Below, piece after piece: positions 7,234 to 63,800 of a stretch of 64,000 nt of DNA. This DNA comes from Deltaproteobacteria bacterium. Its GTDB lineage: Bacteria; Bdellovibrionota; JAJCYS01. The DNA lies in the NCBI GenBank assembly GCA_029262815.1, contig JAJCYS010000029.1, positions 9,837 through 73,836 on the forward strand, in the 5' to 3' direction. Position 1 is the stretch's first letter, and every line of letters begins with the position of its first letter. The translations under genes and the position numbers were made by a program. The notes below the pieces were generated by a model. It made no database searches, was not told the DNA's origin, and saw only the letters and a list, made by a program, of their open reading frames with translations.

Positions 7234-7308
7234 GGAGTTCTTAGGGTCTCAGAGCACTTTTTGGCACTTAAGAAGGTGCCAAAAAGTGCTCTGAGACCCT
7301 AAGAACTC
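7234..7308. terminator. Perfect ~33-bp inverted repeat between convergent genes. It could be a bidirectional terminator or a palindromic element.
   Basis: The arm gagttcttagggtctcagagcactttttggcac is followed by loop ttaagaag and then gtgccaaaaagtgctctgagaccctaagaactc. These are perfect complements. The repeat sits between the 3' ends of the 5022..7220 (+) and 7320..9104 (-) genes. Confidence 0.6.
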
Positions 7309-7319
7309 CCAAAACAACT

Positions 7320-12200: not shown

Positions 12201-14923
12201 GGCAAAAAATGATGAACGCTTTAAAGAAAAAGCAATACAGCGTGGACGATCCTGATGCAATGCCAATCATAGCGGAATTCTTTATATCTCGGATTAATGA
12301 TTGGGTTCATGCAAAAGGGGAGTTTGCCTCATTCGATGAAAACCTGATTATCTCGAAGCGGTTTGAGGATGAGGCCTTGCGATACAAAATTGCAGCTCGT
12401 GCGGCAGGAGATTTGGTCCGTAGCTATCAAACAATCACCAACCTCGAAGAAAGTACGGGAAATCAAATCGATGAATTTCGTAAACAGGAAAAAAATAAGG
12501 AACTATTGGCACTGATGCAGGCATTGCATGAGGCGTTCGGCATCGATCCAGAGTTAGACATGGTTCATGCACTTCATGAGTTACATGCCTTGAAACGACT
12601 TGAGGAACGAGAACCCACTGAACCCCGAGTCCACATTCGACCTCGTGTGGTGGTAAATCGAGGGAAAGATGGACAAGAAGGACATGGTGTAGATTTTTTG
12701 ATTTCGGTGATTTCCTCGCCTGATGAAGGTGCAGAAGCGTCAAAGGGTGTGCCTACCTTTTACACGGATGTGAACTACGTTTTTAATGAGATTAGTGAAG
12801 AAGAGGTTGAGGTCATTGCCAAAGTGGGGGTCTATAGGGGGAAGAAAAAACAAGGCCTCATAGGATACTATGACCCGAAGACCAAACGCGTTATCAAAGA
12901 GCCCAAAGAATTTAAAATCGGACGAGTGGGTGTCAAAAAAGCCTTACCTGGAACTTCTGATCTTATGATCGGTATGGGAAAAAAGATAACCGATGATTCA
13001 CAGTCCGAACGAAATACTATTCAACATGTCGAAGCCTATGATCCGAGCAAAGCCTCATCATGGGGAAAGACATGGGGTAATGAACAAGTAACTTACTTAT
13101 CTCCGCAGCTTTGGATCCGTTGGAAGGATGCGCCTTTAGGAGGTGGCTTTGCGTATGAGTATACGGTCACCGGTGATAATTCAAAATATACGTATTCAAA
13201 TGACGGCGTCATTATTCCGGGGGTACGATTTCCAGTTCAGGAAGGTGAGCCCTCTAGGCAAAATGCTTTTGTTATCAGATTGCCGTGGCCTAGAGGGTAT
13301 GCGGGCCAATTTAATGTGACAGGTAAGCTTCACGCTTTTAAAAAATATCCGGGAGGGTCGGATTGGAAAAAACTGACAGCACTTGCGACCTACGATTTTG
13401 AAAAAACATTTTCGATTCAGGATGATCGAGGCGACACAGAGGTTACCTTAAAATTGGGCGTTTCAAAGCTGGGGCCTGAAACACCTCCAAAGCCTGGAGA
13501 CAAGACCGTCAGGCGAGCCAAAGCGCCAAAGAATGCACCTGCCCACATGAAAAACTGGGTTTATGAGCCGACTTTCTTGGATTGGGATGATCAGAAGGCT
13601 TCACCGTTTCGCGGGCGGTGGGGAGAAGACTATATTCGAGGGCATAAGCCACAGCTCTGGATCAATTGGCCTGATGTACCTCCATCAAAGCGATATTATT
13701 ATGAGTATGAAGTCACCGGGGGACGGCCTGAGTATCTGAAAGGAACGAAAAAATTAACAGCGATTCGATCAGCTGAGTTTTTTCCCCCTTATGAACGGGG
13801 AAAACCTCGTCCATTAGGGAATCGGTTTGTAATTCCGTTTAAGTATCCAGTCAGTCATGGCGGGTTGTTTCAGATTGAAGGTACGTTGTATGCGTATGAA
13901 AAGGGAGGGCGTCCTGAAGTCCTCAAACAACAAACCCCTTTGGCAACGCTGCCTTTTAAAAAGACATTTAGGATTGGGTTCTTTGATCGTTCGGGTCATG
14001 TGAAAGGGACTGTCTGGCCTTCTGGAATTGTTGTTGGAAAAGTCAGGTTAAATCGGATTCAGAAAGGTAAACGGGTTGCTAAAATAACCGGTGCAGGATC
14101 GACAAACTACTGGATGGTTCACTCGGTGGGTCTCGGAGGGGACTTTATCTTTCGAGGTGCGAAGAATTTAAAGACCGTTACAGTTGAGTTTCAAGATTTT
14201 GGTGAAATGGCACGGTTAGCGCTGCCTGTAGAGTTGAAATCCAGAGAGTCAAAACTAAATTCATCAAAATGTGTGAGTGACCGTAAAAAATCCTTGGCTA
14301 ATTTACAGAAAAGAAATCCCTATGCATATAAAGATATTATTGGAACACAGAAGAATATTGCAAATTGTTATGTGTATAAGTTCTCAGGTAATTTAACTGA
14401 TAATTTCGAAGCCTGGGAGAAGAGCATGATTGAGGTGTTTAAAACCAGACAAAAATGGGCAAGTGTGGTGACGAACAGAAGTTGGGCAGGTCACAAGAAG
14501 AAGCGTCTTCGAGTTCAGGTTCCTGGCAAAAAAGGTCGGCCCAATGTTGCTATTCAAGGGACAGAACATCAAGGGCTTATTCAAGAAGCACTCCAACGGC
14601 AGAAGCAATCTCTAGAAGATCAAGTTGCGCATACGTATCTCAGAATTTCTCATGCAGCAGGACGTAATGGTTACTACGATAAGGCCAAAAAGTGGTCTCA
14701 AAAATTTGTGGAAAATGCGAAGGGGAAAGAGCGTTTTGATAGTTACTTGAAATCTCACTATTTCCAAATGGCAAGAGTAACTGTTCGGCTGGCAGGTGAC
14801 GCCGATGAGGCACTCAGATATGAAAAATTAAGCAATGAATTCAGGATGAAGAGCGCCAAGAATCCCAATTACAAACCACCACCCCTTCGATTTGAGATTG
14901 GTGAAGACTTCAAACGACTCTAG
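9257..14923 (+). CDS. Giant secreted hypothetical protein (1888 aa) with a tandemly duplicated ~130-aa C-terminal domain.
   Basis: Signal peptide MMSSVRVFKRWGVVLSLLIACQAFSS. Uninterrupted 5.67-kb ORF. Internal repeats share PQLWI.W.D.P...YEY.VTG...FVI...L.A..K...LAT..F.KTF. Confidence 0.7.
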   Translation: MMSSVRVFKRWGVVLSLLIACQAFSSSKDEDKESVRHKIPNWKFVNIYKDVTNLTHLDPKAQSDAKSDILGKLKASQGTDLTKIGEIFQKYSFEAVEKIAKSMTFSAKESGELSRMRREMINQAMAEAIKQVDPGKKLTIGMLDSGNKNSGIASDVDQTVFIMPKDLAKKLGITEAKIIEAFNKKFKSKFGVDPGRLGIESMNGADFFPDWRQRQNTGVVSDRVDRMMYGEEVDRVVGEKRKNPEAYRSEGQLKSQAEGRGYESLQQHHQRVSDLQTAKDKIEAYTKDKSLSPADRAKKIKTLTSQLLKKYQKNYPASSIDDIEQRFRKDSPWTEVSWEKGKPVTSQMQDPKNKVLKDMPETRAKRFAFDGAWDNWLMYENHPHNRRKYLLRSIAEGISLLRSRATGTPLTTLEYEKVYNSGDKAQLNKFLTDVYKGVDEAKIKRFRKSLDVAAKERLRHKGEKNPSTGKEYTIKEVWSEYWPRVSEAESKLYADMPKEAFEKMLHERAVRNWEADGREIMIENLVRTVSSPAHLLNGGMTDADLKKIQKKFPHASKAKLELAVRKQLYHGIHDLITIEHARALVEEARTGKKSTQSRHTSLVDRLFKALGGENSKMGKEVKAIALQAAQRRIATEPGARTFRHEFFDFMRTSLKEKFNDTKFRLAGTAEAFKEAKAKYQKGFYTPEYVADKVIRAMGDRWGSLKAHGHHLAGFEKVRTNMLVPVRGPIDIPIQKATYKWSGKKLFRNMATAGNIDSVIQVMYAYQTGGSEAAAWTAGYEIMMNFPPVAQLNAVKDLVVNKQPRGVIMMGSAMMVPALGQAYIMVSLGTTSVKLLGNYVLQPLKNDDADKMYQGFLDQSSGFKEIERSQRVSLLHFVPRRYVQKTVKAPEGTKDDKGNLVKTTQVIYFDTYSKQEARKYFTVFDNEYSEFVEKGLVGGDENWSKTIKDMGNEIQNPVAYFNSKRIGMYHYYRNPKAVFAKDWQKMMNALKKKQYSVDDPDAMPIIAEFFISRINDWVHAKGEFASFDENLIISKRFEDEALRYKIAARAAGDLVRSYQTITNLEESTGNQIDEFRKQEKNKELLALMQALHEAFGIDPELDMVHALHELHALKRLEEREPTEPRVHIRPRVVVNRGKDGQEGHGVDFLISVISSPDEGAEASKGVPTFYTDVNYVFNEISEEEVEVIAKVGVYRGKKKQGLIGYYDPKTKRVIKEPKEFKIGRVGVKKALPGTSDLMIGMGKKITDDSQSERNTIQHVEAYDPSKASSWGKTWGNEQVTYLSPQLWIRWKDAPLGGGFAYEYTVTGDNSKYTYSNDGVIIPGVRFPVQEGEPSRQNAFVIRLPWPRGYAGQFNVTGKLHAFKKYPGGSDWKKLTALATYDFEKTFSIQDDRGDTEVTLKLGVSKLGPETPPKPGDKTVRRAKAPKNAPAHMKNWVYEPTFLDWDDQKASPFRGRWGEDYIRGHKPQLWINWPDVPPSKRYYYEYEVTGGRPEYLKGTKKLTAIRSAEFFPPYERGKPRPLGNRFVIPFKYPVSHGGLFQIEGTLYAYEKGGRPEVLKQQTPLATLPFKKTFRIGFFDRSGHVKGTVWPSGIVVGKVRLNRIQKGKRVAKITGAGSTNYWMVHSVGLGGDFIFRGAKNLKTVTVEFQDFGEMARLALPVELKSRESKLNSSKCVSDRKKSLANLQKRNPYAYKDIIGTQKNIANCYVYKFSGNLTDNFEAWEKSMIEVFKTRQKWASVVTNRSWAGHKKKRLRVQVPGKKGRPNVAIQGTEHQGLIQEALQRQKQSLEDQVAHTYLRISHAAGRNGYYDKAKKWSQKFVENAKGKERFDSYLKSHYFQMARVTVRLAGDADEALRYEKLSNEFRMKSAKNPNYKPPPLRFEIGEDFKRL

Positions 14924-16701: not shown

Positions 16702-18093
16702 ATGAAACGTAGTTACAATACCGTATCAGCATTTTTGCTGCTATCCCTGGCTTTAGGGGGTTGTGCAAAAAAAGGTGCAATTGAGAACAAGCAAAAAAAT
16801 AATCAAATGGCTGCAATTCAGGCCAAGCAGAAACAGCTTGAATCTGAACTGGCGGCAAAAGAACTGAAAGATATCAATTCATATTGGATCGGGCGAACCG
16901 TTTTAATAGCGAAAGTCGTCCAAGGGGAAAACGATGTTACAGAAAAATTTCTTGGACGTTTTAAAGATACGACCCAAAATTCTCCGATAGAAGATCCTGA
17001 GTTTAATTTCAATTCAGAACGTTTTATTGTGAGTGCCATTGTAGATGGTACAAAATCAAAATTTACTTATGATACAAGTGGTGATGGTCCTAATGCTGGA
17101 CGTGTTGTATTGGAAGAAAATGGGAAAATTGTTCTAAAGAAATTTGTATTTAAAATTAAAAATAAGGAATCCGGATCAGTTTTAAGGTATGAAAGTCCAA
17201 GACTTGAATTGAGTCTTTTAGATGAAAAAAATGTCACATACTTGGTGGGTAAAGGCGAAAACGGACTAACCGTATTTTTCGAAGCCAAGGATCCAGATGC
17301 AATTGTAGCTGAAAAAAATGAGGTCATCAAAAAACAAGATGAAGATTTGAGATCTGAAAAAGAAAAATATAGTCGATTTGAAGCTGTAAAAAATCAAGAA
17401 ATTGGTGATCTTAAGTTAAAGTTAGCCAAATTTCAAAATACAACAGTTCCAAAATTAGAAACTCAGTTAAAGAAATTAAATGAAGAGACAGTCCCTGTGC
17501 TAGAAAGTGCAATAGCAACGTACAAGAACACGACAGTGCCGGGATTAGAAAACAAATTGAAAACACTCGAAAAAACAACAGTCCCCGGACTACAGCAAAA
17601 AATTGCAGTGTATAGAGATACGACGGTACCTGGATTGAACACCCAAATAGAGAATCTAGAAAATGCAGCGGGAGAAACAACAAGATTGCAAGGTATCAAA
17701 GATCAAAAACAAGTTATAGCAACGAAGAAATTGAATAATCAGTTAAAGAAATTGAACGAAGAGACAGTGCCAGGATTAGAAAGTAAAATCGCAATGTACA
17801 AGAATACGACAGTGCCGGGATTAGAAAACAAGGTAAGAGAACTTGAAGGAACAACAATCCCTGGATTGCGCCAAGAGGTTACAGTGCTTAAAGAAACGAC
17901 GGTACCCGGATTGGAAAATACGATAGAAACATACAAGACTAAAACGGTACCTGGATTAGAAAACAAAATAGCAACATACAAAAATACAACAGTACCTGGA
18001 TTAAAAAATAGAATTAAAGAACTTGAAAAACAGCTTGAGGGTAAAGAACCTGAAGAAAAGAAAGAAAAAGATGATTCTTCAGATTCTGAATAA
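16702..18093 (+). CDS. Repeat-containing lipoprotein with ~13 copies of a 15-aa unit (TTVPGLENKIxxYKN).
   Basis: Lipobox LGGC in MKRSYNTVSAFLLLSLALGGCAKKG. The in-frame 45-bp tandem repeats encode TTVPGLxxK units in two blocks, and a larger ~280-bp internal duplication (NQLKKLNEETVP.LES.IA.YKNTTVPGLENK) appears twice. Confidence 0.75.
   Translation: MKRSYNTVSAFLLLSLALGGCAKKGAIENKQKNNQMAAIQAKQKQLESELAAKELKDINSYWIGRTVLIAKVVQGENDVTEKFLGRFKDTTQNSPIEDPEFNFNSERFIVSAIVDGTKSKFTYDTSGDGPNAGRVVLEENGKIVLKKFVFKIKNKESGSVLRYESPRLELSLLDEKNVTYLVGKGENGLTVFFEAKDPDAIVAEKNEVIKKQDEDLRSEKEKYSRFEAVKNQEIGDLKLKLAKFQNTTVPKLETQLKKLNEETVPVLESAIATYKNTTVPGLENKLKTLEKTTVPGLQQKIAVYRDTTVPGLNTQIENLENAAGETTRLQGIKDQKQVIATKKLNNQLKKLNEETVPGLESKIAMYKNTTVPGLENKVRELEGTTIPGLRQEVTVLKETTVPGLENTIETYKTKTVPGLENKIATYKNTTVPGLKNRIKELEKQLEGKEPEEKKEKDDSSDSE
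17441..18040 (+). repeat. In-frame 45-bp tandem repeat array inside the lipoprotein gene.
   Basis: Recurring acgacagtgccgggattagaaaac-type units. The protein shows a 15-residue periodicity. Confidence 0.7.
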
Positions 18094-30010: not shown

Positions 30011-31006
30011 ATGAAACTAGATCTGAGATACATACTACTGACGGTGATACTTGCGTGTTTTAGCTCCCATGGATTGTCAAATAACTTACCAACAGAGCCT
30101 TCGCAGCCAGGTTCGGCAGATCAAATTGAAAAATCAAATAATCTGCCTGCGGATGAACTGCTGAATGACGAGGGGGGATTTAATTTTTTACCTTATCTTG
30201 TCTCCGGAGGCATTCTAACGCTTATTCTTTCATCCCACTACATTTGGTGGGATGAAGAGCCCGAATCTTTTCATTTTAAAGAATTCCATCCGATGCTAAG
30301 CAGAAGTTCTGATTCGGGGGGCACAGATAAATTTGGCCACATGTGGATGAATTACGTGCTTACTCGACTGGGGTCCAGGCTTATGTACCTCTTGGGTGCT
30401 GACCGTAAAGAAGCCATCATTTTCTCAGGTTTGACCGTTTTTGTAGGGTACACGCTGCTTGAGATTCAAGACGGATATACCGCTCATGGGTTTGATCCAG
30501 GTGATTTTTTGTTCAACAACTTTGGCATGCTGCTGGGTGTCATGAAAGAGATCTTTCCAGAGCTGGATAACTATTTTAGATTTCGAATGGGGTATTTTCC
30601 CAGTCGCCATTTTATTCGTGCTTTACATGCCAATGCGAAATCATGGTCTGATTTTCCTGAAGATTATGCAGGATTAACCTATTATTTTGACTTTATACTG
30701 CCTTTTGTTCCTTTTTTAACGGTTGGTTTACACTGGGTGACCAAAGGATATCAATGGCCAGATGAGGATCCGCCAGTTCCCTTTTCACGAAAAAAAGAGC
30801 GATTTTTAGGGGTTCATGTCGGCATTAATGGGTCTTATTTGATTCGAACATTCATGAATCCACGATTTATATCAACCAAGATCTTCTACTTTTTAGACCA
30901 ATTAATTGCCGTTCCCTTTTCGATGATCGAATTTAAATTTAGTTTAGACGAAAGCTCAAATCGGTTGACCTTCGGAATTAATTCACACATAGTTATCAAA
31001 ATATAA
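30011..31006 (+). CDS. Hypothetical secreted protein.
   Basis: Signal peptide MKLDLRYILLTVILACFSSHGLS. Confidence 0.5.
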   Translation: MKLDLRYILLTVILACFSSHGLSNNLPTEPSQPGSADQIEKSNNLPADELLNDEGGFNFLPYLVSGGILTLILSSHYIWWDEEPESFHFKEFHPMLSRSSDSGGTDKFGHMWMNYVLTRLGSRLMYLLGADRKEAIIFSGLTVFVGYTLLEIQDGYTAHGFDPGDFLFNNFGMLLGVMKEIFPELDNYFRFRMGYFPSRHFIRALHANAKSWSDFPEDYAGLTYYFDFILPFVPFLTVGLHWVTKGYQWPDEDPPVPFSRKKERFLGVHVGINGSYLIRTFMNPRFISTKIFYFLDQLIAVPFSMIEFKFSLDESSNRLTFGINSHIVIKI

Positions 31007-31150
31007 CCTCGTTTATTTATGAGACCGGTTCAAGCTATAATACTGTTGAGTTATTATGGGCAGTATTACATTTCACGCGTTGATATCTAGCCAATTTCCT
31101 AAACAGATGTTATTTTGGGGCGTTTCCGCTATTGAGTTGCTGGAGGCGTT

Positions 31151-42269: not shown

Positions 42270-42455
42270 TTAGGGCGTGTCCTCATTAGGGATTCGTTAT
42301 GAGGAAATGGAGATTTTGATTCGAAACGAGGAGGTTGAGTGAAAAAACCGCAGGTGTAGTAGCGCTACATCGAGGATTCTTTCATGAAAATCGACGAAGT
42401 TGTAGGCCAAAAGATCTATTCCACAGTAGAATCTCTAATGAGGACACGCCCTAGC
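42270..42455 (+). mobile_element. MITE-like element, family B, copy 1 (~185 bp with ~25-bp terminal inverted repeats).
   Basis: The termini tagggcgtgtcctcattagggattcg and gaatctctaatgaggacacgccctag are inverted repeats. The whole element recurs reverse-complemented at 62675..62850. Confidence 0.75.
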
Positions 42456-42987
42456 TGAATTTGGGTTTGAAAGACAAAGTCATCCCGATGAGTACAGCAT
42501 TATTAAAGACTTGTGCCCCAAGCCCCAAACGAAATCCATTTTCAATATGGTAGTACAAGCAGAGTTCAGTCGATGCGAGGTTGAACCCTTGGCTAAAGAC
42601 ATACGTGAGGCCAGTCTGGGCGGTTAGGATTAAATAACGGAGTAAAAACCAATCAAATCCGATAAGGGTGTGTATTGAGAAAAGATACTGACTAGCGTTA
42701 CCAAAGATACTCGCCCCCGATGCGACGAATCCCTGAAACATACGGCCCGTTGTATGGAATTTTAACGAAAGGGGGACGGTACCTCCATAGAGATCAACTG
42801 CTTCGAAATTAGTAGCTATGAAAAGCTCTGGCTTTGCTGAAAAAGATAACCATTTTTGAATGGGCACGACAATTTCAATTTCGGGATTGACCATGCCAAG
42901 GACACTAAAAGAGGGCTCTTCAGCAGTGGCCAGCTGAGCTGTTGTGAACCCTAAAAGTAAGATGGATAAAAAGAAAAAATTTTTCAT
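42451..42987 (-). CDS. Small outer-membrane beta-barrel-like protein.
   Basis: Signal peptide MKNFFFLSILLLGFTTAQLATA. Small (178 aa) with beta-strand-like alternation. Its stop codon TAG is the terminal trinucleotide of the family B element. Confidence 0.5.
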   Translation of the reverse strand: MKNFFFLSILLLGFTTAQLATAEEPSFSVLGMVNPEIEIVVPIQKWLSFSAKPELFIATNFEAVDLYGGTVPLSLKFHTTGRMFQGFVASGASIFGNASQYLFSIHTLIGFDWFLLRYLILTAQTGLTYVFSQGFNLASTELCLYYHIENGFRLGLGAQVFNNAVLIGMTLSFKPKFS

Positions 42988-44533: not shown

Positions 44534-45748
44534 ATGCGTATTTTATTAACAAACACAGGACCATGGGGAACGGGCAGCTCTGCTGTCATCGAAGGTGTTA
44601 AATCTGAACTGCTTCGGTTGGGCCATCAGGTCAAGGTGATCTTGCCTGATCGCCAAGAGAACATCGCAGGCATGAACTTGAACCCTGATCACTATCATGT
44701 CATGACGTTTCCAACCAGCTATCAAGGTGAAGCATTCTATACCTTTCCGCTCATGATCTCTGACCCAAATCCTCGTAACCTCAGGGGTGCTTGGACCTTT
44801 AAAGAAATGCCTCAGGCTGCTTTTGAAGCCTATCAGGGTTACTTAAAATCTGAGTTAGCTTCTGTTATCCAAGAATTCAAACCTGATCTGGTCGAAACAC
44901 ATCATGTTTGGCTAACAGGCTACGTGTTGAGTCAACTCAATATCCCATACGTCTGTTGTGCCCATAACTCAGATCAACTGGGATTTGAATTTGATGAGCG
45001 AATGCAGCCGTACGCCAAAACGTGTGCCCAACAAGCGCAAAAAATATTTGCACTCTCTGAGTCAAACAAAGCGCAAATCGTATCTCTCTATGATGTCGCG
45101 CCTGAAAAAACGCCTATTTTAGTAAATGGATACGACAGCGAGACGTTCAAACCCATGCATATTAATAAAGCGGAACTTTTTGATGCCTACGATATTCAAT
45201 ACCCGTTAGATTTACCCGTTGTTGTGTTTGGTGGAAAATTATCAAAAATTAAAGGCATTGACGTCTTGCTTGAAGCGAATGCTCAGCTTCAAAAAACGAC
45301 GCCATGCGTTATGATTGTATTTGGTACTGGGGAATTGAACGACGCACTAGAGCGGTGTCCCACAGATGAAGAGACCAATCGAGTTGTGTTCATGGGACAT
45401 CAACCGGGTTCGGTGCTTGCACAGTTTTACAACTGTGCCGAAGTCAGTGTGTTACCCTCTCGAAACGAAGGATTTCCATTGTCTGTATTAGAAGCGATGG
45501 GATGTGGGGTACCGATTGTTGCCAGCAGGATTTGTAAATTGGAAGATCATATTATCGGAGAAACCGTACCACCCGAAGATCCCGGTGCGCTCTCAGACGC
45601 CTTGATCCGTCTCCTTGGTCAATCCCATGCGGCACATGTGGCTATGAAGCAACAAGTGTTGAATCACATTAAACATTATACGTGGGCTGAGAATGTAAAA
45701 ATTCGAGTGAAATTGTACGAGCAAGTCTTGCGAGAAACAAACTCTTAA
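44534..45748 (+). CDS. GT4-family glycosyltransferase.
   Basis: C-terminal EGFPLSVLEAMGCGVPIVAS is the GT4 (EX7E) signature. Confidence 0.8.
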   Translation: MRILLTNTGPWGTGSSAVIEGVKSELLRLGHQVKVILPDRQENIAGMNLNPDHYHVMTFPTSYQGEAFYTFPLMISDPNPRNLRGAWTFKEMPQAAFEAYQGYLKSELASVIQEFKPDLVETHHVWLTGYVLSQLNIPYVCCAHNSDQLGFEFDERMQPYAKTCAQQAQKIFALSESNKAQIVSLYDVAPEKTPILVNGYDSETFKPMHINKAELFDAYDIQYPLDLPVVVFGGKLSKIKGIDVLLEANAQLQKTTPCVMIVFGTGELNDALERCPTDEETNRVVFMGHQPGSVLAQFYNCAEVSVLPSRNEGFPLSVLEAMGCGVPIVASRICKLEDHIIGETVPPEDPGALSDALIRLLGQSHAAHVAMKQQVLNHIKHYTWAENVKIRVKLYEQVLRETNS

Positions 45749-45778
45749 GCGACCTCTTTTTCAGGACTCTTTTTTTTA

Positions 45779-45955
45779 GAACCGGACTCGTAAATAACTT
45801 CGTAAAGAGATCAAGCGAAATCTGTAGCCTCAAGGCCGCAGGTGAAAAATGCTCGGAGGTGGCCACATTGGCCATCGAGAACATTTTTTACCGAGAACGA
45901 CGAGGCTGGGCAGATTGCAGCTGATCGGAATAGAGGTTATTTATGAGTCCGGTTT
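45779..45955 (+). mobile_element. MITE-like element, family A, copy 1 (~177 bp with 19-20-bp terminal inverted repeats).
   Basis: gaaccggactcgtaaataac pairs with gttatttatgagtccggttt. It is about 94% identical to 63619..63800. It carries the internal palindrome ggccacattggcc. Confidence 0.8.
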
Positions 45956-46933
45956 AAGTTCTTTGAGCTTCATTTCCCAACGATACGCGTGGCTAACGAT
46001 CTCACTTAAGTTGTCGAACTGGGGCTTCCAACCGAGAACGGCTTTAATTTTGTCGCATACTGCAATCAACTGCTCTGCGTCACCAGCACGTCGGCCAGCT
46101 TCTTTGACCGTAAAGGCTACACCCGAAGCACGCTGTACTTCCTCAATAACTTCTTTGACACTATATCCATGACCGTACCCAACATTAAGCAGCGTGGATT
46201 CACCGCCATTTTCCAGATACGTGAGTGCATCAAGATGTGCCCGAGATAAATCTTCAATATGGATATAGTCTCGAATTGCTGTTCGATCAGGCGTATTGTA
46301 ATCCGTTCCATAAATTTCCATGTGAGACCGCTGTCCCGTAGCAGTTTCGCATGCAACTTTGATGAGATGGGTGGCATTTCGGGTGCGTTGGCCCATGCGA
46401 CACTCTGGATCAGCCCCTGCTACATTAAAATATCTCAGGGCAACATATTTTAGGGGATGTGCTTTTACGATATCTTCTAACATCATTTCAGTTAGCAATT
46501 TCGATTGTCCGTAAGGGTTCAAGGGGGCAGGTGAAGACAACTCATCAGCTTGACCACTTACGGGTGATCCATAAATTGCTGCTGTACTTGAAAAAATAAA
46601 TCGATGAACATTGTTTGCAAGGCACGTCTCAACCAATCCCAACGTATTACAGGTATTGTTTCTAAAATATTTTATGGGGTGGGTGACAGATTCACTAACG
46701 GTTTGAAAGGCAGCGAAATGAAGTACAGCATCAAACTGCTCCGCTTGAAATAATGCATCAAGTTTTTCTAGATCTGCTAAATCAATTGAAACCAATTTCT
46801 CGTCATAAATAAGGGCGTCTCCGTAGCCGGCCTTCAGGTTATCGAGTACGACAACCGTATGTCCTGCTTCGGACAACTGTCGTGTGACATGACTGCCAAT
46901 GTAGCCTGCGCCGCCTGTAACCAATAATTTCAT
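45941..46933 (-). CDS. galE: UDP-glucose 4-epimerase.
   Basis: MKLLVTGGAGYIGSHVTRQL, then YGQSKLLTEMML (YxxxK). The ORF-track N-terminal extension to 47056 is rejected. The last 4 codons and the stop lie inside the family A TIR. Confidence 0.85.
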   Translation of the reverse strand: MKLLVTGGAGYIGSHVTRQLSEAGHTVVVLDNLKAGYGDALIYDEKLVSIDLADLEKLDALFQAEQFDAVLHFAAFQTVSESVTHPIKYFRNNTCNTLGLVETCLANNVHRFIFSSTAAIYGSPVSGQADELSSPAPLNPYGQSKLLTEMMLEDIVKAHPLKYVALRYFNVAGADPECRMGQRTRNATHLIKVACETATGQRSHMEIYGTDYNTPDRTAIRDYIHIEDLSRAHLDALTYLENGGESTLLNVGYGHGYSVKEVIEEVQRASGVAFTVKEAGRRAGDAEQLIAVCDKIKAVLGWKPQFDNLSEIVSHAYRWEMKLKELKPDS

Positions 46934-47019
46934 ATGATCTTCCCTATAATTCCATCTGTGGTCATAAGTATATGCGTTTATACCTGTTTCGTCACTTTGG
47001 GCCAGATCTTTAGGGTCGT

Positions 47020-48297
47020 ATGATTGACATGCTACTTCTGTGTATGCTACAAACAAGCCCCATGGGACAATTTAAATGTTATTTATTTTATATCTCGGTG
47101 TTAACCTTAGGTACCGCTGAATATGCTCAAAGCTGCTCTGTCGAGGATCTTAAACAAAAATTAATCCAAGCAAGTGGGGAACAAACGTTAAAAAAACGGA
47201 TTGTGACTGCAGATCAAACAAATATTGAACAGTGGGGACTCAGGGTTGCTGCTTATGAAGAAACTCTAAGAATGTCTGGTTTTAGATATGATATGCAGTT
47301 AGAAATGCTGATGACACAAGATCCATTTACGCGTGCATTCTTTCATGAATCACAAGACGCATTCTCAAGTAAAACTTTTTATGCAATTCAGGACGAAATT
47401 AAGATGTTAAAAAAACGATGGGCGGCATATGACCAAGTCATGCAAAATAGATTTTCATCTCAAGTTGTAAAAGATTTTTTCAGAAATGGCAACGGTTTTT
47501 CACGCGAACTCATGAATCGTATTGCACAAAATGCTCATCTCGATGTCACACTGGATCGATTACTTATGATGCGTGACCAAGTCGAGGCAGTGCATGGTGA
47601 AACCCAAGCAAAATATGATGTTCCTGAACCTCGCAGTAAACAAGAACATACGAATTTGCGGATGGGGGATAAGATTGCAATCAAGGGGACGCCAACCTTT
47701 GAGGGGATGACAACCTTTTATCTAGATATTGTGATGGTTATGGATGTTATTCGTGCACATATGATCAACAATCAAAAATCGATGGATCAACCGTTTGATG
47801 GCCCTCTATTCGATGGCCAAGGGTTTGAAGGATCCACCCTTGTTGGATTAGGATCTGGATACCCCAGAATGGGTGTTTTCTTAGGGCTTAGTTATCCTAA
47901 TCTCGAATACAATGGATATGAGATCGCACCTGAACGTGTTCAAGTCAGTCAGCAAGTTGTGCGTAATTTAGAACTAACGAACGTACACTATGAAGAGCGG
48001 AATTTAAATCGAACAGGATCTTTGCCTGAAGATGGTAATATTTATTTTATCTATGATTCGTTTGGAATTAATACACGAGATTTTGTAATTGATGAATTAC
48101 AAAAACTTGGACAGAAAAAATCGTTTTATCTGGTTGTTGTCGACGGCTACACTTACGATCTAAGAATTCGGTTGCCGAAGGAAAAATGGCTTAATCGTAT
48201 CTACTTAGGATACAGTCGGGGACCCTATGGAAATCCCATACAGTATGGTCCTGATACTGCTGAACAGGTTTCTATTTTTTACGTACATAAAAAATGA
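47020..48297 (+). CDS. Hypothetical protein with a methyltransferase-like C-terminal motif. Start uncertain.
   Basis: Long ORF. TLVGLGSGYPRMGVFLGLSYPNLEYNGYEIAPE resembles MTase motif I followed by an acidic strand end. Confidence 0.45.
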   Translation: MIDMLLLCMLQTSPMGQFKCYLFYISVLTLGTAEYAQSCSVEDLKQKLIQASGEQTLKKRIVTADQTNIEQWGLRVAAYEETLRMSGFRYDMQLEMLMTQDPFTRAFFHESQDAFSSKTFYAIQDEIKMLKKRWAAYDQVMQNRFSSQVVKDFFRNGNGFSRELMNRIAQNAHLDVTLDRLLMMRDQVEAVHGETQAKYDVPEPRSKQEHTNLRMGDKIAIKGTPTFEGMTTFYLDIVMVMDVIRAHMINNQKSMDQPFDGPLFDGQGFEGSTLVGLGSGYPRMGVFLGLSYPNLEYNGYEIAPERVQVSQQVVRNLELTNVHYEERNLNRTGSLPEDGNIYFIYDSFGINTRDFVIDELQKLGQKKSFYLVVVDGYTYDLRIRLPKEKWLNRIYLGYSRGPYGNPIQYGPDTAEQVSIFYVHKK

Positions 48298-51321: not shown

Positions 51322-51855
51322 ATGAAAATCTATACCAAAAAAGGTGACCTTGGCCAGACACAAACCTTGGGGAGTGGGCGTGTGCCTAAGGATGATCAAA
51401 GACTTCATGTGGGGGGCCTCATCGATACGTGTAATTCAACTGTCGGATTTTTGTGCTCACTATTGCCCAGTGATGACCCACTGACTGACAATCTTCACCG
51501 CATTCAACGTGGCTTATTTAGCCTTGGACTTGAGGTAACGGGTGGACGTCAACAAGACCATATGTTAAATGAATCAGACGTAACATTTTTAGAATCTCAA
51601 ATCGATCAATATTGGGATACTTGTCCGCCGCTCACAAAGTTTGTTTTACCAGGTGGCACACCATCTTCGTGTCAAGCCCATCTGTGTCGTGTCCAGGTGC
51701 GGACAATGGAACGCTCTCTGGTTACCCTCTGCCGAGAAACCAACACACCATTTGATTTGGGACTGCAATATGTGAATCGTTTGAGTGACTATTTTTTTGC
51801 TATAGCACGATATTTGAATCATCAAGCGGACATGGGAGAAGTAACATGGCCTTAG
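51322..51855 (+). CDS. PduO-type ATP:cob(I)alamin adenosyltransferase.
   Basis: The N-terminus MKIYTKKGDLGQTQTLGSGRVPKDDQRLHVGGLIDTCNS matches the PduO/MMAB family consensus MKIYT.TGD.G.TSL..G.RV.K. Confidence 0.8.
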   Translation: MKIYTKKGDLGQTQTLGSGRVPKDDQRLHVGGLIDTCNSTVGFLCSLLPSDDPLTDNLHRIQRGLFSLGLEVTGGRQQDHMLNESDVTFLESQIDQYWDTCPPLTKFVLPGGTPSSCQAHLCRVQVRTMERSLVTLCRETNTPFDLGLQYVNRLSDYFFAIARYLNHQADMGEVTWP

Positions 51856-53045
51856 GAGAGTCCAGCCGTATCCCCGGCTTTTATAAATTAAAGTTTAATC
51901 AGAAATTGACTCACATTTCTGAATTAACAGGTATCTCCCTAGAACGGTTAAACGGAGCATTCCAATCCCTGCACATGGCTCAAACAGGCATCGATGAGTT
52001 GGTCGAAAACTGTATTGGTGCGCTCTCAGTACCGTTGGGTATTGCGCCAAATTTCAAAATAAATGGAAAAGACTATCTTGTGCCAATGGCTGTAGAAGAG
52101 AGCTCCGTGATTGCGGCTGCCTCAAAAGGGGCTAGGGTCACATATGAATCAGGCGGGTTCGCGAGTGAACTTTTAGACAACATGATGATCGGGCAAGTTC
52201 AGTTTTCAATTCGAGATGAAAAAGATGCTGACACCGTACGAGATAAAATTGCGTCTTATGAAGAATCGTTGCTAAGTGATTTAAATGAAGTCATTCCAGG
52301 GATGGTTCATCGAGGCGGTGGGGTTCGTGCAATCTATGCACGTGGGCCTTTTACCTATCAAAGTCATACTTTTTTGGTGATCCAAGTCGATGTATCGGTG
52401 CAAGATGCCATGGGCGCCAATGTCACCAACCATGTGTGTGAACGCTTAGGAAAATTATTAAACCGTATGGTACCCGGGCAAACCAACACATGTATTCTTA
52501 GCAACCTCGCAACCAAGCGACTCGTGCATACGACCTGCCGTGTACATTTATCAGAAATAGTGCCTGAGCACGAATGGGATGATGCAATCCGTCGTTTTGA
52601 ATTGGTCCAAGGATTTGCTGAAGTGGACCCTTTTCGTGCAGTCACCCACAACAAAGGAATCATGAACGGCATTGATGCTGTGCTCTTGGCCACAGGAAAC
52701 GATTGGCGGGCGAACGAAGCAGGTGCGTTTGGATACGCAAGCCTATCCGGTCGCATAAAACCCCTTTCTCATTGGCGTGCTGAAAAACCCTACTTATTTG
52801 GAGAGCTCCAACTTCCCATCCAACTCGGAATTGTAGGTGGGGTCACCCGAATTCACCCCACCGCCAAACTCAGCCTAGACATCTTAGGCATTGAGCATGG
52901 CAAAGAACTAGCAGAGCTCGTAGGAGCCGTCGGTTTAGCTCAAAATTTTAGCGCCTTACGTGCCCTAGCTTTTGAAGGCATCATGGAGGGGCATATGCGA
53001 TTGCACAAAAAAAACCTCAAACGCCACAAGACGCTTGCTGAGTAA
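51846..53045 (+). CDS. mvaA: Class II hydroxymethylglutaryl-CoA reductase.
   Basis: ENCIG (the ENVIG motif), DAMGANV and GIVGG motifs. Its ~400-aa length and N-terminus resemble the Pseudomonas mevalonii class II enzyme. Overlaps the upstream gene by 10 nt. Confidence 0.85.
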   Translation: MALGESSRIPGFYKLKFNQKLTHISELTGISLERLNGAFQSLHMAQTGIDELVENCIGALSVPLGIAPNFKINGKDYLVPMAVEESSVIAAASKGARVTYESGGFASELLDNMMIGQVQFSIRDEKDADTVRDKIASYEESLLSDLNEVIPGMVHRGGGVRAIYARGPFTYQSHTFLVIQVDVSVQDAMGANVTNHVCERLGKLLNRMVPGQTNTCILSNLATKRLVHTTCRVHLSEIVPEHEWDDAIRRFELVQGFAEVDPFRAVTHNKGIMNGIDAVLLATGNDWRANEAGAFGYASLSGRIKPLSHWRAEKPYLFGELQLPIQLGIVGGVTRIHPTAKLSLDILGIEHGKELAELVGAVGLAQNFSALRALAFEGIMEGHMRLHKKNLKRHKTLAE

Positions 53046-53264: not shown

Positions 53265-54470
53265 CTAGAGGTGTAATTTTTCGACTTCGGCCACAGGGTG
53301 CTTAAAGCGAGACTCACTTAAAGGTGACAAATCTAACCCTTCAAATTGTCCCTTCGTCATCAATTGAGCGAGGCCACGTCCTGCAGCAGGGCTGATCATC
53401 ACGCCACGGCCCGTAAAGCTGTGGATTTGAAACAAAGAATCATAGGATCCAACACGGCCCAAAATACCATCTTGGTCTGGTGAGTAACTATATATCCCAG
53501 CCCATCCGCGCATATGTTTGCATGACCCAAAGACTTCACTAAATTCATATAACTTTGGCCATAAGATATTCTCAAAAAAATCACATTCACTATATGTAAA
53601 ATCAATCCCCTCAGGTTGATCTTGCAAGCCAAATCCCGTAAGCAATAATCCACCCTCAGGATGAAAATAGGTCCCTTCTGGTGTTATGGTCATGGGCAAC
53701 TTGGGATTATAAGCCTGTGGGGCATCTATCATTGCAATGTGTCTGGCAATGGGTCGACATGCGTATGTCACATTTATAAAAGGCTTGAGCACCTGATGGC
53801 TCCATGCACCCATGGCTATCACAACCTGTCTTGCTTCGACAGTTTCTGTTGATGCTTTAGGATAGGTACCTGTCTCTAAAAACTCCTGCACGTTTTCTGA
53901 TGTGACATGTGCAAACGTTAATCGCCAGCCGTCTTGGTGCGGTTCTAAATCAATCAGAGCGCGCTCTGATTGTAAGGTCCATGATCCAGAAGTTAAAGTG
54001 CTTGGAATTTGTTCTATAAACCAATTTCGGAGTCGGTTGCTATTTACGAGTCCTGCTTCTGGATGAAAAGTAACGTGCGCCGCAGTATCCTTGTTAAATG
54101 ACCAAGGCAAATATGGAATAGGGTCATGAGGTGAAAAATGTTTGATCGGAAATTCAGAAAGATCTGAGATTAAATCTTCATTCAGCTCAGGATGTGTTTT
54201 ATGAAACCAAAGATAACCGCACGGATGGTATCCAACCTCTGCTTGATGCTGCCTTAAAAAATGAATACTTTCTAAACTCAAACGCCTATTTAATGAATGC
54301 TGCCAAAAAGCACGAACCGCTCCTCCATTTCGCTCAGAGCTTGCAAAAGTTCCAGCCGTATCTACATCGAACATCGCAATATGTGCCTCAGGTTTTTGAT
54401 GTGCCAAATGATAAGCTGTTGATGTACCCAATACGCCCGACCCACAGACCACGCAGTCAAACTGTTTCAT
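53265..54470 (-). CDS. FAD-dependent oxidoreductase (DAO family).
   Basis: MKQFDCVVCGSGVLGTSTAYHLA carries a GxGxxG FAD-binding motif. The start is set at this Met, which has a GAGGAAA Shine-Dalgarno. The ORF-track extension to 54701 is rejected. Confidence 0.7.
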   Translation of the reverse strand: MKQFDCVVCGSGVLGTSTAYHLAHQKPEAHIAMFDVDTAGTFASSERNGGAVRAFWQHSLNRRLSLESIHFLRQHQAEVGYHPCGYLWFHKTHPELNEDLISDLSEFPIKHFSPHDPIPYLPWSFNKDTAAHVTFHPEAGLVNSNRLRNWFIEQIPSTLTSGSWTLQSERALIDLEPHQDGWRLTFAHVTSENVQEFLETGTYPKASTETVEARQVVIAMGAWSHQVLKPFINVTYACRPIARHIAMIDAPQAYNPKLPMTITPEGTYFHPEGGLLLTGFGLQDQPEGIDFTYSECDFFENILWPKLYEFSEVFGSCKHMRGWAGIYSYSPDQDGILGRVGSYDSLFQIHSFTGRGVMISPAAGRGLAQLMTKGQFEGLDLSPLSESRFKHPVAEVEKLHL

Positions 54471-56772: not shown

Positions 56773-59355
56773 ATGCGGGGGATTTTGACTACTCTAGTTT
56801 GCCTGTGGGGGTGCGTAACCTGGGGTTCAGAATGTAAGAACCCTGAAAACGTTGAAACATGGACTTCAGACCATTTAGAGTGGCAGCTTGATTCTAAATG
56901 GGCCGAAGAAAAATCGACTAAAGTCAATGAACTATTGAGTCTAAAGAAAATTAATTCGCAGGATTGGTATCACTTTCTCAAAAGCAGCACGACCGAGTTA
57001 GCTGATTTAATTGACGAAATTTGTGGGTCAAAAAAAATCCGTAGGATCAAAAGTCGTATCAAAACCCATGTGGGCAGAGGATGGTTGGGTCGATTTTTTT
57101 TAGGGGACCGGCTGATTGTGCTACCTCAAAAGATTCAAAATAAAAAACATCTTGCAGAGGTGCTCATCCGTTTGACGGAATTAGCACGCGAACGAAAAAT
57201 TCAACTGATGCGAGAGCCGTTAAAAAAAACGTTCATCCCATTCTTCTTTGTTAAGGAAGCTGAAAAAGTACGACGTGACATTGAGTACATGGAGAAGCGC
57301 TATATGGTTCGTGATGTGGAGTTGTTAATATTTTTTGCAGCGGCAAAGATTTCGGCGCCCAAGCGCATTTGGCCTGAAACGCCTACGGCACCCTTAGAGA
57401 ACATCCTGGGTGGACAAGTGATCAAACCCAGCCAGTTAGATTCCCTTATGAATAATCAGATGATAAAACTTCCTGGTTTTTTTGAATCTGCGATAAAAGG
57501 TCAACATTGGGCGAACTATGGTAAAACGCATTGGGCGTCTTTAATACTTTGGACGTTATTTTATGCAGTACCGATAGAAGATGAAGATCCCACCGATTTT
57601 GGAAATGTGGGTGATGGATCCATCTATCATGCAGCAGAAATAGAAGAACAAGATGAAACGTTCCAGGATCATCCTCAAAAAGCTGTGATTGTTGATGTGA
57701 AATTATCTCAAGATGAGCTTTTAAAGATTCAAATTGGAACATATGACACGGCGGGTGACTATCTAACAGTCAATCAAACCAACCTAAATCGATATACGGT
57801 TTATGTTGCGAAAGTATTACAGGTCAGATTCCGTGGCGAAACAGTCTTTGAACGTTATGCTCGTGCTGCGCACAATCGAACCTTGAGTTTTAAATTAGGC
57901 AAACAGTTTCTCTGGATGCTCTTTGACCCAAAGCTACGGGAATACGGATTGAGTTTTACAAATTTCATGCTTCACAAATGGACGCCTGAGAAATTTAAAA
58001 AATTGATAGAGAAACAGGATGTGGCTTACATTCCTTCGTTTATGAAAGGCGAGGCTAAACAGAATCTTGAGAAGTTGCAGTCTTTAGTTCGCAGTGGAGA
58101 CGCAAAAGCGCAGGAATTATTCAACCTTCTGTATTCAAGGTATGCCGAAGTCACGAATCAACCCGTATTTAATGTCGTGTATCTTGCAATGATGGAGGAT
58201 CAGGATTTATTTGAAAAGAGTAAAAGTAGACAATCTTTAGTACGGATTGGGAAAATTATTTTAAGTACGGTTGTAGCATCAAAAGCGCAAGCTTTTGCCA
58301 AACTACAAACCCGAATGGGATGGGTCAGCTCAAGTACGGCACTGGCTACATTTGGGGGAACTTACTACGCGGCAACAACCCTTGAGGATATCTTAACGCA
58401 TACGAATTTAAGTACATTTTGGGCGCAAGAGGCCCGTTTATTAGGACGAGAGACGGAGTACGATGTATTTATCAAACGGTTGGATGCTGTATACACCGAT
58501 AAAACACTTTCTGATTTACCGCTAGTTCACTTTTTAAAAGAAATCGATCCCATTATTCGTATGCCTAACTTATTGATCCGAGGGCGTTTGTTTTCTTATC
58601 TACAAAAATCTGATGTTAAAAAACGAATTGCAACATGTTTGGGTGAACCTGGATTGTTTGTTTCAGAAGAAAAACAGTTAAAAGATTCAGAGCAGTTTCT
58701 TAACAAAGCATTCACATATCCCATGATGTGTGAGCTGTACGTGCTAGCTACCCATGGGGTCAAGTCGCCTATCAAAACCTTAGTCATTAAAAAAGGCATT
58801 GAAGGAGAGGTGCACCCCAACTCTCATGCAAGGGTCTCTGTTCTGGGTCAAACACATCAAGGTACGTTTGTGTTTACACCACGTACAGGATGGCCTAACC
58901 ATGTATCGGTCTATGTACTGGGCAGTTTGCTTTGGATGACCATATTGGACCAGTACGTGAAAGACGTATCCTATTATCCAACGGCTGAGCTTTTTGAGCA
59001 GGCATGTTTGTGGCATGTGTATATGGCTATGAAAGTTCAAACATTTATGATGATGCACGTTGAAGGAAAAACCAAATCCAGCATTGTATTATGGTCGACT
59101 TCAAGAGAGGAAGTTCAAAATCGAGCAAAGAATGACAAAGCTGTCAAAGTGATAGCTGATCGTGCATTGAATAACTTTAATAGTGTCCAAGGGATCACCT
59201 TAAAATCCCATTTGTTACAACAGTCCCAGTACGGAAGCCAGGTTGATGCGTATTGGTTATATGCATTGCGTCCTTTCCCCTTAGCCCATATTTTTAAATC
59301 TTTGAAACAAGTCTATGGTCCTGGATATAGAAAGTACTACCTTAAATACTATTAG
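56773..59355 (+). CDS. Large hypothetical secreted protein (860 aa).
   Basis: Signal peptide MRGILTTLVCLWGCVTWGSEC. Long ORF. Confidence 0.55.
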   Translation: MRGILTTLVCLWGCVTWGSECKNPENVETWTSDHLEWQLDSKWAEEKSTKVNELLSLKKINSQDWYHFLKSSTTELADLIDEICGSKKIRRIKSRIKTHVGRGWLGRFFLGDRLIVLPQKIQNKKHLAEVLIRLTELARERKIQLMREPLKKTFIPFFFVKEAEKVRRDIEYMEKRYMVRDVELLIFFAAAKISAPKRIWPETPTAPLENILGGQVIKPSQLDSLMNNQMIKLPGFFESAIKGQHWANYGKTHWASLILWTLFYAVPIEDEDPTDFGNVGDGSIYHAAEIEEQDETFQDHPQKAVIVDVKLSQDELLKIQIGTYDTAGDYLTVNQTNLNRYTVYVAKVLQVRFRGETVFERYARAAHNRTLSFKLGKQFLWMLFDPKLREYGLSFTNFMLHKWTPEKFKKLIEKQDVAYIPSFMKGEAKQNLEKLQSLVRSGDAKAQELFNLLYSRYAEVTNQPVFNVVYLAMMEDQDLFEKSKSRQSLVRIGKIILSTVVASKAQAFAKLQTRMGWVSSSTALATFGGTYYAATTLEDILTHTNLSTFWAQEARLLGRETEYDVFIKRLDAVYTDKTLSDLPLVHFLKEIDPIIRMPNLLIRGRLFSYLQKSDVKKRIATCLGEPGLFVSEEKQLKDSEQFLNKAFTYPMMCELYVLATHGVKSPIKTLVIKKGIEGEVHPNSHARVSVLGQTHQGTFVFTPRTGWPNHVSVYVLGSLLWMTILDQYVKDVSYYPTAELFEQACLWHVYMAMKVQTFMMMHVEGKTKSSIVLWSTSREEVQNRAKNDKAVKVIADRALNNFNSVQGITLKSHLLQQSQYGSQVDAYWLYALRPFPLAHIFKSLKQVYGPGYRKYYLKYY

Positions 59356-62573: not shown

Positions 62574-62674
62574 ATTAGTACGTAACAGGGACGGCTTTTA
62601 TTAGGATTAAATTACGACATTTTTTTACGTGTTTAAAGAACTTTTTTGCTTTTACATGGGAGGATACTAAGACG

Positions 62675-62850
62675 AGTTCTCACGAGGGATTCTACTGCGG
62701 AATAGATCTTTTGGCCAACGACTTCGTCGATTTTCATGAAAAAATCCTCGATGTAGCGCTACTACACCTGCGGTTTCTCCACTCAATCTCCTCGTTTCGG
62801 CTCAAAATCTCAATTTCCTCGCAACGAATCCCTTATGAGGACACGTCCTA
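62675..62850 (-). mobile_element. MITE-like element, family B, copy 2 (reverse orientation, left TIR partly degenerate).
   Basis: Reverse-complement alignment to 42270..42455 along its whole length, for example cgattttcatgaaa(a/g)aatcctcgatgtagcgctactacacctgcggttt. It lies in the divergent region between feoB and the 62926 ORF. Confidence 0.7.
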
Positions 62851-62925: not shown

Positions 62926-63633
62926 ATGTTATCTCCTGAATTGTTGCTACCACACTATTTACCTTCTTTACGGACTTCGCCCACGGATCGCCTGGTATTG
63001 GGGTTTAGCTATGAGCAATCAAAGGCGTTGAACAGCCTCAAAAAGTGGGGGCAGGTGGACCCAATTGCCTACCGTCGCCCCGTAAGTCTCTACCATGTTC
63101 GACCCAATACGGATGAGTACGCTCCACTTCTAGTCGGATTCATGCATGGATTCGGGTTTCAAACGCTTTGGGTCTTATTGTCTGAGTTTCAGGCTTGGGG
63201 CATACGGTCGGTTGTTCTGACAGGGTTTGGAGGGCACACATTCAAGGCGCCTAAGGGTCAAGGATATTGGATTTCAAAGGCTTATAAACAAATTTCAAAC
63301 ACAGAAATTTCATCCGATGCAGTCAAACCTCAAACGCCTGTTACAAAACATCCTTTGGGTCGTGCTGAAGTCTCATGCGTCTCAACCTTTTCACCTTATG
63401 AATCTCAGTTGGATTTATCTCCGGTTATCGATATTGAGTATATAGTCGATATGGAAGTGGCATGGTTTTTTGAGCGATGTAATGCATTATCGTTGGCCTG
63501 CGGGGCAGTTCTCAGGGCATATGATTTTCTAGGGAGCCGTGCATATAAACCGAATGTGCACACGCCTCTTGATGTAAAAAATGATTTAGAACATTTACTA
63601 CATCAAATGATGACACTAGAACCGGTCTCATAA
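62926..63633 (+). CDS. Nucleoside phosphorylase-superfamily-like protein (possibly MTA/futalosine nucleosidase-like).
   Basis: VVLTGFGG and VDMEVAWFFERC resemble the PNP_UDP_1 glycine-rich and (E)ME(x)AA motifs. The last four codons and the stop lie in the family A TIR. Confidence 0.4.
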   Translation: MLSPELLLPHYLPSLRTSPTDRLVLGFSYEQSKALNSLKKWGQVDPIAYRRPVSLYHVRPNTDEYAPLLVGFMHGFGFQTLWVLLSEFQAWGIRSVVLTGFGGHTFKAPKGQGYWISKAYKQISNTEISSDAVKPQTPVTKHPLGRAEVSCVSTFSPYESQLDLSPVIDIEYIVDMEVAWFFERCNALSLACGAVLRAYDFLGSRAYKPNVHTPLDVKNDLEHLLHQMMTLEPVS

Positions 63634-63800
63634 ATAACTTCGTAATGAGATCGAGCGAAATCTGTAGCCTCAAGGCCGCAGGTGAAAAATGCTCGGAGGT
63701 GGCCTCATTGGCCACCCGAGAACATTTTTTACCGAGAACGACGAGGCTGGGCAGATTGCAGCTGATCGGAATAGAAGTTATTTATGAGACCGGTTCTAAC
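63619..63800 (+). mobile_element. MITE-like element, family A, copy 2 (~182 bp with perfect 20-bp TIRs).
   Basis: gaaccggtctcataaataac pairs with gttatttatgagaccggttc. About 94% identical to 45779..45955. Confidence 0.8.

Follow-up and report, generated by a model that had tools for sequence, protein, structure and literature searches.

The question raised by this locus is what kind of element is formed by a repeat of about 180 nt that lies between two convergent genes, and whether it is to be read as a mobile element or as a structured hairpin module. The window, i.e. the whole stretch of 64,000 nt that was analysed, had previously been described in a sequence-only reading, which reported two copies of about 94% identity. 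Both copies were confirmed at their positions: copy 1 (A1) spans 45777-45956 and copy 2 (A2) spans 63617-63798, the flanking TA dinucleotides included, and they are 95% identical over 179 nt (E ~1e-77). Without the TA, the element, termed family A, measures 176-178 bp (A1 45779-45954, A2 63619-63796). The likeness between the copies ends sharply at the element borders, and the flanks are unrelated right up to the TA.

Each copy is bounded by terminal inverted repeats (TIRs) of 22-25 bp. The earlier account of 20-bp TIRs was right as to their presence but understated their length, since 23-25 terminal positions, counting the TA, are paired in each copy. The tips read GGACTC...GAGTCC in A1 and GGTCTC...GAGACC in A2, and the form of the family A TIR was written as GAACCGG(T/A)CTCATAAATAAC. 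When the TIR pattern AACCGGNCTCNTAAATAAC was sought with up to 3 mismatches, the window gave six matches where shuffled sequence would give 0.17, a 35-fold excess. Four of them were the TIRs of A1 and A2. A fifth was a solo TIR (31012-31031), which has no partner TIR and no TA on its outside and probably remains from a third insertion. The sixth match (54039-54057) had 3 mismatches, lay inside an ORF of the DAO family in dissimilar surroundings and was treated as chance. Two full copies and one solo TIR are thereby present within the 64-kb window, where an nhmmer profile made from family A and the related family B (see below) revealed no further diverged copies. The internal palindrome noted earlier was recovered as GGCCACATTGGCC in A1 (45861-45873), with GGCCTCATTGGCC as its counterpart in A2.

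A TA dinucleotide, and no longer repeat, was found on both sides of A1 and A2, of the two family B copies (B1 and B2) and of four complete copies of a soil insertion sequence (IS) that is described below. It was regarded as a putative target-site duplication; the TA could also be the outermost part of the TIR, because it never varies and an empty site was not found. The features are collected in Table 1.

Table 1. Coordinates of the repeat features of families A and B within the 64-kb window
Feature	Position	Strand	Remarks
Putative MITE family B copy 1 (B1), with TA flanks	42271..42453	+	TIR GGGCGTGTCCTCATTAGGGATTCG; in the stop codon of ORF 42451-42987
Putative MITE family B copy 2 (B2), with TA flanks	62668..62850	-	TIR decayed; between divergent feoB and ORF 62926-63633, promoter region
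TA left of A1	45777..45778	.	putative target-site duplication, read from sequence
Putative MITE family A copy 1 (A1)	45779..45954	+	long imperfect hairpin; outer right end lacks the terminal C of A2
A1 left TIR GAACCGGACTCGTAAATAACTTC	45779..45801	+	
A1 right TIR	45932..45954	-	holds the TAA stop 45941-45943 (minus strand) of the GalE-like gene 45941-47056
A1 apical palindrome GGCCACATTGGCC	45861..45873	.	hairpin tip
TA right of A1	45955..45956	.	
TA left of A2	63617..63618	.	
Putative MITE family A copy 2 (A2)	63619..63796	+	25-bp terminal stem, perfect; left TIR holds TAA 63631-63633 of ORF 62926-63633
TA right of A2	63797..63798	.	
Solo A-type TIR	31012..31031	-	19/19 positions as in the A2 TIR; 6 nt past the stop of ORF 30011-31006

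The coding potential of the element was inspected in all six frames, and neither a transposase nor a plausible ORF was seen in an element of this small size. The translated frames had no match in 5.8 billion clusters and, among 1.84 billion representatives, retrieved one spurious eukaryote-like repeat protein only, in agreement with the earlier statement that no plausible protein is encoded. An in-frame peptide insertion of the kind known as RPE elements was considered and rejected: one frame is open across A2, A1 is frameshifted relative to A2, and protein homologues were not found.

Further, a metagenome scan was performed with the query GAACCGGNCTCNTAAATAA. It led to JGI soil contigs (Ga0335077, Ga0335080-84) carrying an element with both ends TAGAACCGGTCTCATAAATA..., which match the A2 terminus at 23 of 23 nt; the 23-nt terminus of A2, TAGAACCGGTCTCATAAATAACT, is identical to both ends of this soil IS. 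Four complete copies of the IS were found, each 883 bp long without the TAs, with 100% identity among them. Its 11 distinct left junctions correspond to at least 11 insertion sites, and many contigs end ~90-125 nt inside the element. The identical copies, the 11 junctions and the contig breaks indicate an IS that is present in multiple copies and was active recently. Two overlapping frames of this IS code for DUF4096 and DDE_Tnp_1; joined at AAAAAGGGGG (A5G5), they give a 258-aa protein. This fusion protein matched NCBIfam NF033580 (transpos_IS5_3) over positions 3-258 of 258 with 219 bits, the cut-off being 110. Only the TA is repeated at the flanks of the four complete copies, and the base before it is mostly Y and the base after it mostly R. 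This pattern agrees with the YTAR-type target preference of IS5-family elements.

The IS427 group of the IS5 family comprises in Paracoccus elements of 832-865 bp, such as IS1248 and ISPaes1, with IRs of 13-21 bp, a DR of 2 bp and two frameshifted ORFs (PMC3281130). The soil IS agrees with this group in its 883 bp, its ~20-bp IR starting with G, its TA flanks and its two frameshifted ORFs. Family A resembles the IS5/IS427 group in its TIR, identical over 23 nt to that of an IS with the hallmarks of the group, whereas it differs from the matching IS in lacking a transposase and in its interior, which is unrelated and forms a full-length palindrome. Judged by its TIR, family A would belong with IS5/IS427-type elements. 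The earlier reading could not name a family, and the 23-nt terminus now permits a placement as IS5 family, IS427-group-like. The host of the soil IS is a different organism of ~58% GC, and the IS shares only the TIR with family A; as the interiors are unrelated, this IS is not the direct parent. When compared with the plasmid collection, the soil IS matched only degenerate Deinococcus 'IS5 family transposase' genes of 69% identity and with no clear TIRs.

The same TIR was also observed on other elements. Non-coding elements of ~110 nt (AACCGGTCTCATAAA...TATGAGACCGGTT) were located at L010 4392-4505, L013 3392-3500, L050 4059-4170 and L051 9556-9666; their hosts are a Terracidiphilus MAG (L010, Acidobacteria) and peat and bog metagenome contigs, and their interiors are different and GC-rich. 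This TIR class seems to have given rise to miniature derivatives more than once, independently of one another. Another element with this TIR (L017 10117-10137, L024, L025, L044, L052) has the conserved junction ...CCCCTAGAACCGG... and a 61%-identical transposase fragment ~2 kb away.

A TIR scan of the GTDB representative genomes, a collection that does not hold the source genome, gave 11 single matches in unrelated phyla, which is within the chance range, and a paired family A element was not found through the TIR pattern in any of these genomes. The scan additionally brought up the Terracidiphilus MAG (L010), in which TIRs bound an element of 115 nt, and an Anaerolineae MAG (L006), in which a TIR is flanked by TA. 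In a Methylobacter MAG (L005 7826-7845), 20 nt agree exactly with the left TIR of A1 type, GAACCGGACTCGTAAATAAC, and GACCGGTTTATTTACG follows ~30 nt on; this is probably a chance match, given the way in which the pattern was selected. A2 had no match in the plasmid collection, nor had the TIRs of A and B in the viral contigs.

Based on these comparisons, it was concluded that family A is most probably a non-autonomous MITE that is mobilised in trans into TA targets by an IS427-type transposase of the IS5 family. The element is small and has no ORF, it carries TIRs, and these are shared with an autonomous IS of another organism. The identity of the TIR with that of a multi-copy IS and the TA flanks support the non-autonomous mobile element of the sequence-only reading. 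A cognate transposase with matching TIRs was found in the soil IS, i.e. in another organism, but none was found by tblastn in the 64-kb window. This lack of a transposase in the window, the number of full copies (two), the origin of the IS from another organism with only the TIR in common, the TA flanks for which no empty site was found, the solo TIR without TA and the strand-asymmetric interior (see below) are the points against the MITE reading.

We proposed the following course of transposition. The IS transposase would be made by a -1 frameshift that joins the DUF4096 DNA-binding part to the DDE catalytic part. Acting in trans, it would bind both ~20-bp ends of the family A element and excise or copy it. 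Insertion would take place at a TA dinucleotide in a context of roughly YTAR, the TA then being duplicated, and with targets rich in TA the copies would tend to lie at or near stop codons and the 3' ends of genes. The TAG and TAA triplets in the TIR would terminate any ORF entering the element. Read-through transcripts would carry a very stable hairpin of ~85 bp, because the interior is an imperfect palindrome, and an effect on mRNA 3' ends, if any, would be a by-product. We infer from the sequences that mobilisation may occur in trans, that the TA may be a true duplication and that the element may be active at present. The model predicts the empty site ...ATGACAC-TA-ACTTCAGAAG for A2 and ...CTCTTTTTTT-TA-AGTTCTTTGAG for A1.

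The surroundings of the copies were then considered. A1 is placed between convergent genes for a GT4 glycosyltransferase (44534-45748, +) and a GalE-type epimerase (45941-47056, -). The GalE frame enters the right TIR of A1 and stops at the TAA there, its last few residues (...KPDS) being element-derived; an alignment with homologues showed that the conserved core is intact. Similarly, the ORF upstream of A2 (62926-63633) enters the left TIR and ends with ...LEPVS at the TIR TAA. With ORF 42451-42987, next to B1, three host ORFs stop inside element ends, and four of the five A/B-type ends in the window are situated at gene 3' ends. Both A copies are oriented like the upstream gene and would therefore be co-transcribed with it. 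A Logan contig from an independent assembly of this organism agrees fully with the window as far as A1 and stops 60 nt inside the element, as is usual where an assembly meets a repeat. Exact-protein look-ups of the flanking genes returned two short Logan contigs only, both from run SRR15505518.

In the searched collections, the nearest relatives of GalE were at most 63% identical and those of Cmk at most 56%, and no A- or B-like element was found on the contigs that carry the closest relatives of Cmk, at 50-56% identity. The gene adjoining the closest Cmk relative encodes a TP_0481_C domain, a possible sign that the lineage is spirochaete-like. The window also holds an HMG-CoA reductase gene (51846-53045), an ORF of 1888 aa (9257-14923) and many large ORFs with no Pfam/NCBIfam match, including 5022-7220, 7320-9104 and 56773-59355. 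Coding tandem repeats with a period of 45 nt (15 aa) were seen at 17423-18011 within ORF 16702-18093, together with larger super-repeats of 276 nt. A perfect palindrome of 76 nt (7234-7309; 34-nt arms, 8-nt loop) lies between the convergent ORFs 5022-7220 (+) and 7320-9104 (-). It is not followed by a T-run, and its arms hold TTAGGGTCTCAGAG, which is faintly like the TIR cores of A and B.

The copies of family B are 88% identical to each other. B1 occupies the TA of a former would-be TAA stop of ORF 42451-42987, and a TAG was remade from this TA and the first G of the element. Family B is like family A in its equal length, TA flanks, 25-bp terminal stem and homologous interior in the same orientation, and the motifs GTGAAAAA, ATCGAG and CGACGA(G/A)G are common to both. 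In contrast, its TIR differs from that of family A at 15 of 25 paired positions, each difference being compensated within the family; the transposase that serves family B is probably a related one, not the same. An alignment of the A and B interiors scored z = 4.7, above all 2000 shuffles, whereas the alignment with the reverse complement gave z = 1.0. This likeness in one relative orientation only argues for common ancestry and for a polarity of the element. Between A and B, 19 pairs were changed on both sides, and 15 of these lie in the 25-bp terminal helix, where two matching transposase-binding ends would suffice to explain the covariation with no need of RNA.

The folding of the element was assessed next to its sequence relationships. 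The whole of family A is self-complementary, with 67-73% identity to its own reverse complement, and its predicted fold is one long hairpin, of -92.8 kcal/mol in A1 (z -11.1) and -101.1 kcal/mol in A2 (z -14.7), as compared with dinucleotide shuffles. The fold of A1 is 18 kcal/mol better on the + than on the - strand because the private changes of A1 are wobble-compatible there, a bias made up of 4 events (p ~0.06), whereas A2 folds equally on both strands (-101.1 vs -97.6). Five stem pairs vary between A1 and A2, and all of them are paired on the + strand (1 double change, 4 G.U). In the earlier argument from covarying TIRs, the mirrored A/T change is real but has less weight than presented, as it concerns one compensated pair; when 9-13 random substitutions were simulated, at least one fully compensated pair arose in 2.5-5% of trials. 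The single compensatory change in the family A TIRs is suggestive. Matched ends are expected for any transposase-bound TIR, and hence compensation alone is no argument for RNA structure.

It was also observed that the unpaired mirror positions are asymmetric on the + strand: 11-12 are R.R and 0-1 Y.Y in family A, and 10-15 and 2-3, respectively, in family B. The purine fraction of the A and B elements is 0.56-0.58, and their mismatches include tandem G.A/A.G. The purine-purine bias and the orientation-specific likeness of A and B argue against a simple fold-back that decayed neutrally, and the strand-asymmetric interior with its purine-purine mismatches is not explained by simple IS decay. The asymmetry could stem from descent from a purine-rich IS coding strand or from selection on the single-stranded form.

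The one-strand purine-purine loops, the G.U-tolerant changes and the arm-specific conserved motifs, e.g. CGACGAGG, are signs of a further reading, which we consider unlikely: A and B may together be a superfamily of long-hairpin modules that are carried by transposons and keep their polarity, the hairpin being under RNA or single-strand selection. Equally tentative is the corollary that such a hairpin would not be a passive IS relic but a mobile module concerned with, for example, 3' ends, mRNA stability or sRNA.

The proposal that family A is in the first place a structured RNA module (a 3'-UTR stabiliser, a processing site or a source of sRNA), selected for its + strand hairpin and having the base of that hairpin as its ends, was judged quite improbable. 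It draws on the very stable fold (z -11 to -15), the 5/5 variable A1/A2 pairs that stay paired on the + strand, the 18 kcal/mol by which A1 folds better there, the mirror mismatches that are nearly all purine-purine on the same strand, the A/B likeness in one orientation (z 4.7 vs 1.0) and the orientation of both A copies with the upstream gene. However, the fold of A2 is equal on both strands, the wobble bias amounts to 4 events at p ~0.06, and the B copies have no consistent orientation relative to neighbouring genes. The whole window gave no match to Rfam 15 at the gathering score, and a relaxed Rfam search returned generic miRNA-hairpin matches only, all of them sub-threshold. Intrinsic-terminator and sigma-70 promoter readings were rejected, as consensus sites were not found at the elements. 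The 15 of 19 covarying A/B pairs within the TIR helix are explained by transposase binding, and an RNA module would leave the TIR identity with the IS and the TA flanks unaccounted for.

Far less probable is that recombination or segmental duplication spread the copies as a fold-back or palindromic repeat, or that they are REP/REPIN-like and moved by a RAYT-type single-strand transposase. The element is palindromic as a whole, like REPINs, and the window holds no transposase, yet the flanks of A1 and A2 are unrelated up to the TA, the terminus is the same as that of a DDE IS, and neither a Y1/RAYT gene nor a REP-like family of short palindromes was found among the window ORFs scanned. REPs and REPINs are built of palindromic units of about 20-40 nt, as a rule in pairs, served by a Y1 RAYT, whereas family A is far longer than REP units, being one hairpin of ~180 nt whose ends are of the DDE-IS type. 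A similarity due to chance, or an artefact of assembly, is hardly credible even with only two copies to compare, given 95% identity over 179 nt (E ~1e-77), a TIR pattern 35-fold above shuffles and an A1 junction repeated in the independent Logan contig, and the earlier claim that the similarity is not due to chance was upheld on the same grounds.

Family A, read as a MITE, was compared with known elements of this form. The Correia elements of Neisseria and the ERIC/IRU elements of enterobacteria are non-coding repeats of 100-180 bp with long TIRs, which are inserted at the ends of genes and transcribed together with them, the RNA forming long hairpins. Correia elements further have a TA duplication, an IHF site, promoters and RNase III processing. 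To our knowledge, the cognate transposase of the Correia and ERIC elements is unknown or different. Family A is like both in form, but no sequence similarity was seen. QMITE2 of Coxiella burnetii measures 150-190 bp and occurs mainly in 3' UTRs and intergenic regions (PMC5896051). Family A is like it in its similar size, its gene-end location and its presence in an unusual bacterium, but shares no sequence with it; QMITE2 has direct repeats of 7-11 nt and a GTAG REP targeted by IS1111, whereas the flanks of family A are TA and its TIRs are of IS5 type.

Family A is an ordinary kind of bacterial repeat, unnamed, in a deep-branching and poorly sampled host. A repeat that had been unassigned can now be placed, by its terminus, in a transposon lineage, namely the IS5 family and its IS427-like members, and one TIR sequence would be common to an autonomous IS and to a number of mutually unrelated miniature elements from more than one phylum. 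The elements also account for three unusual gene ends in the window, at which the ORF stops within an element end. For annotators, the family would be a case of repeat-induced assembly breaks and of MITE-derived C-terminal tails. Only the hairpin common to A and B, with its strand asymmetry and conserved architecture, might be of interest more widely.
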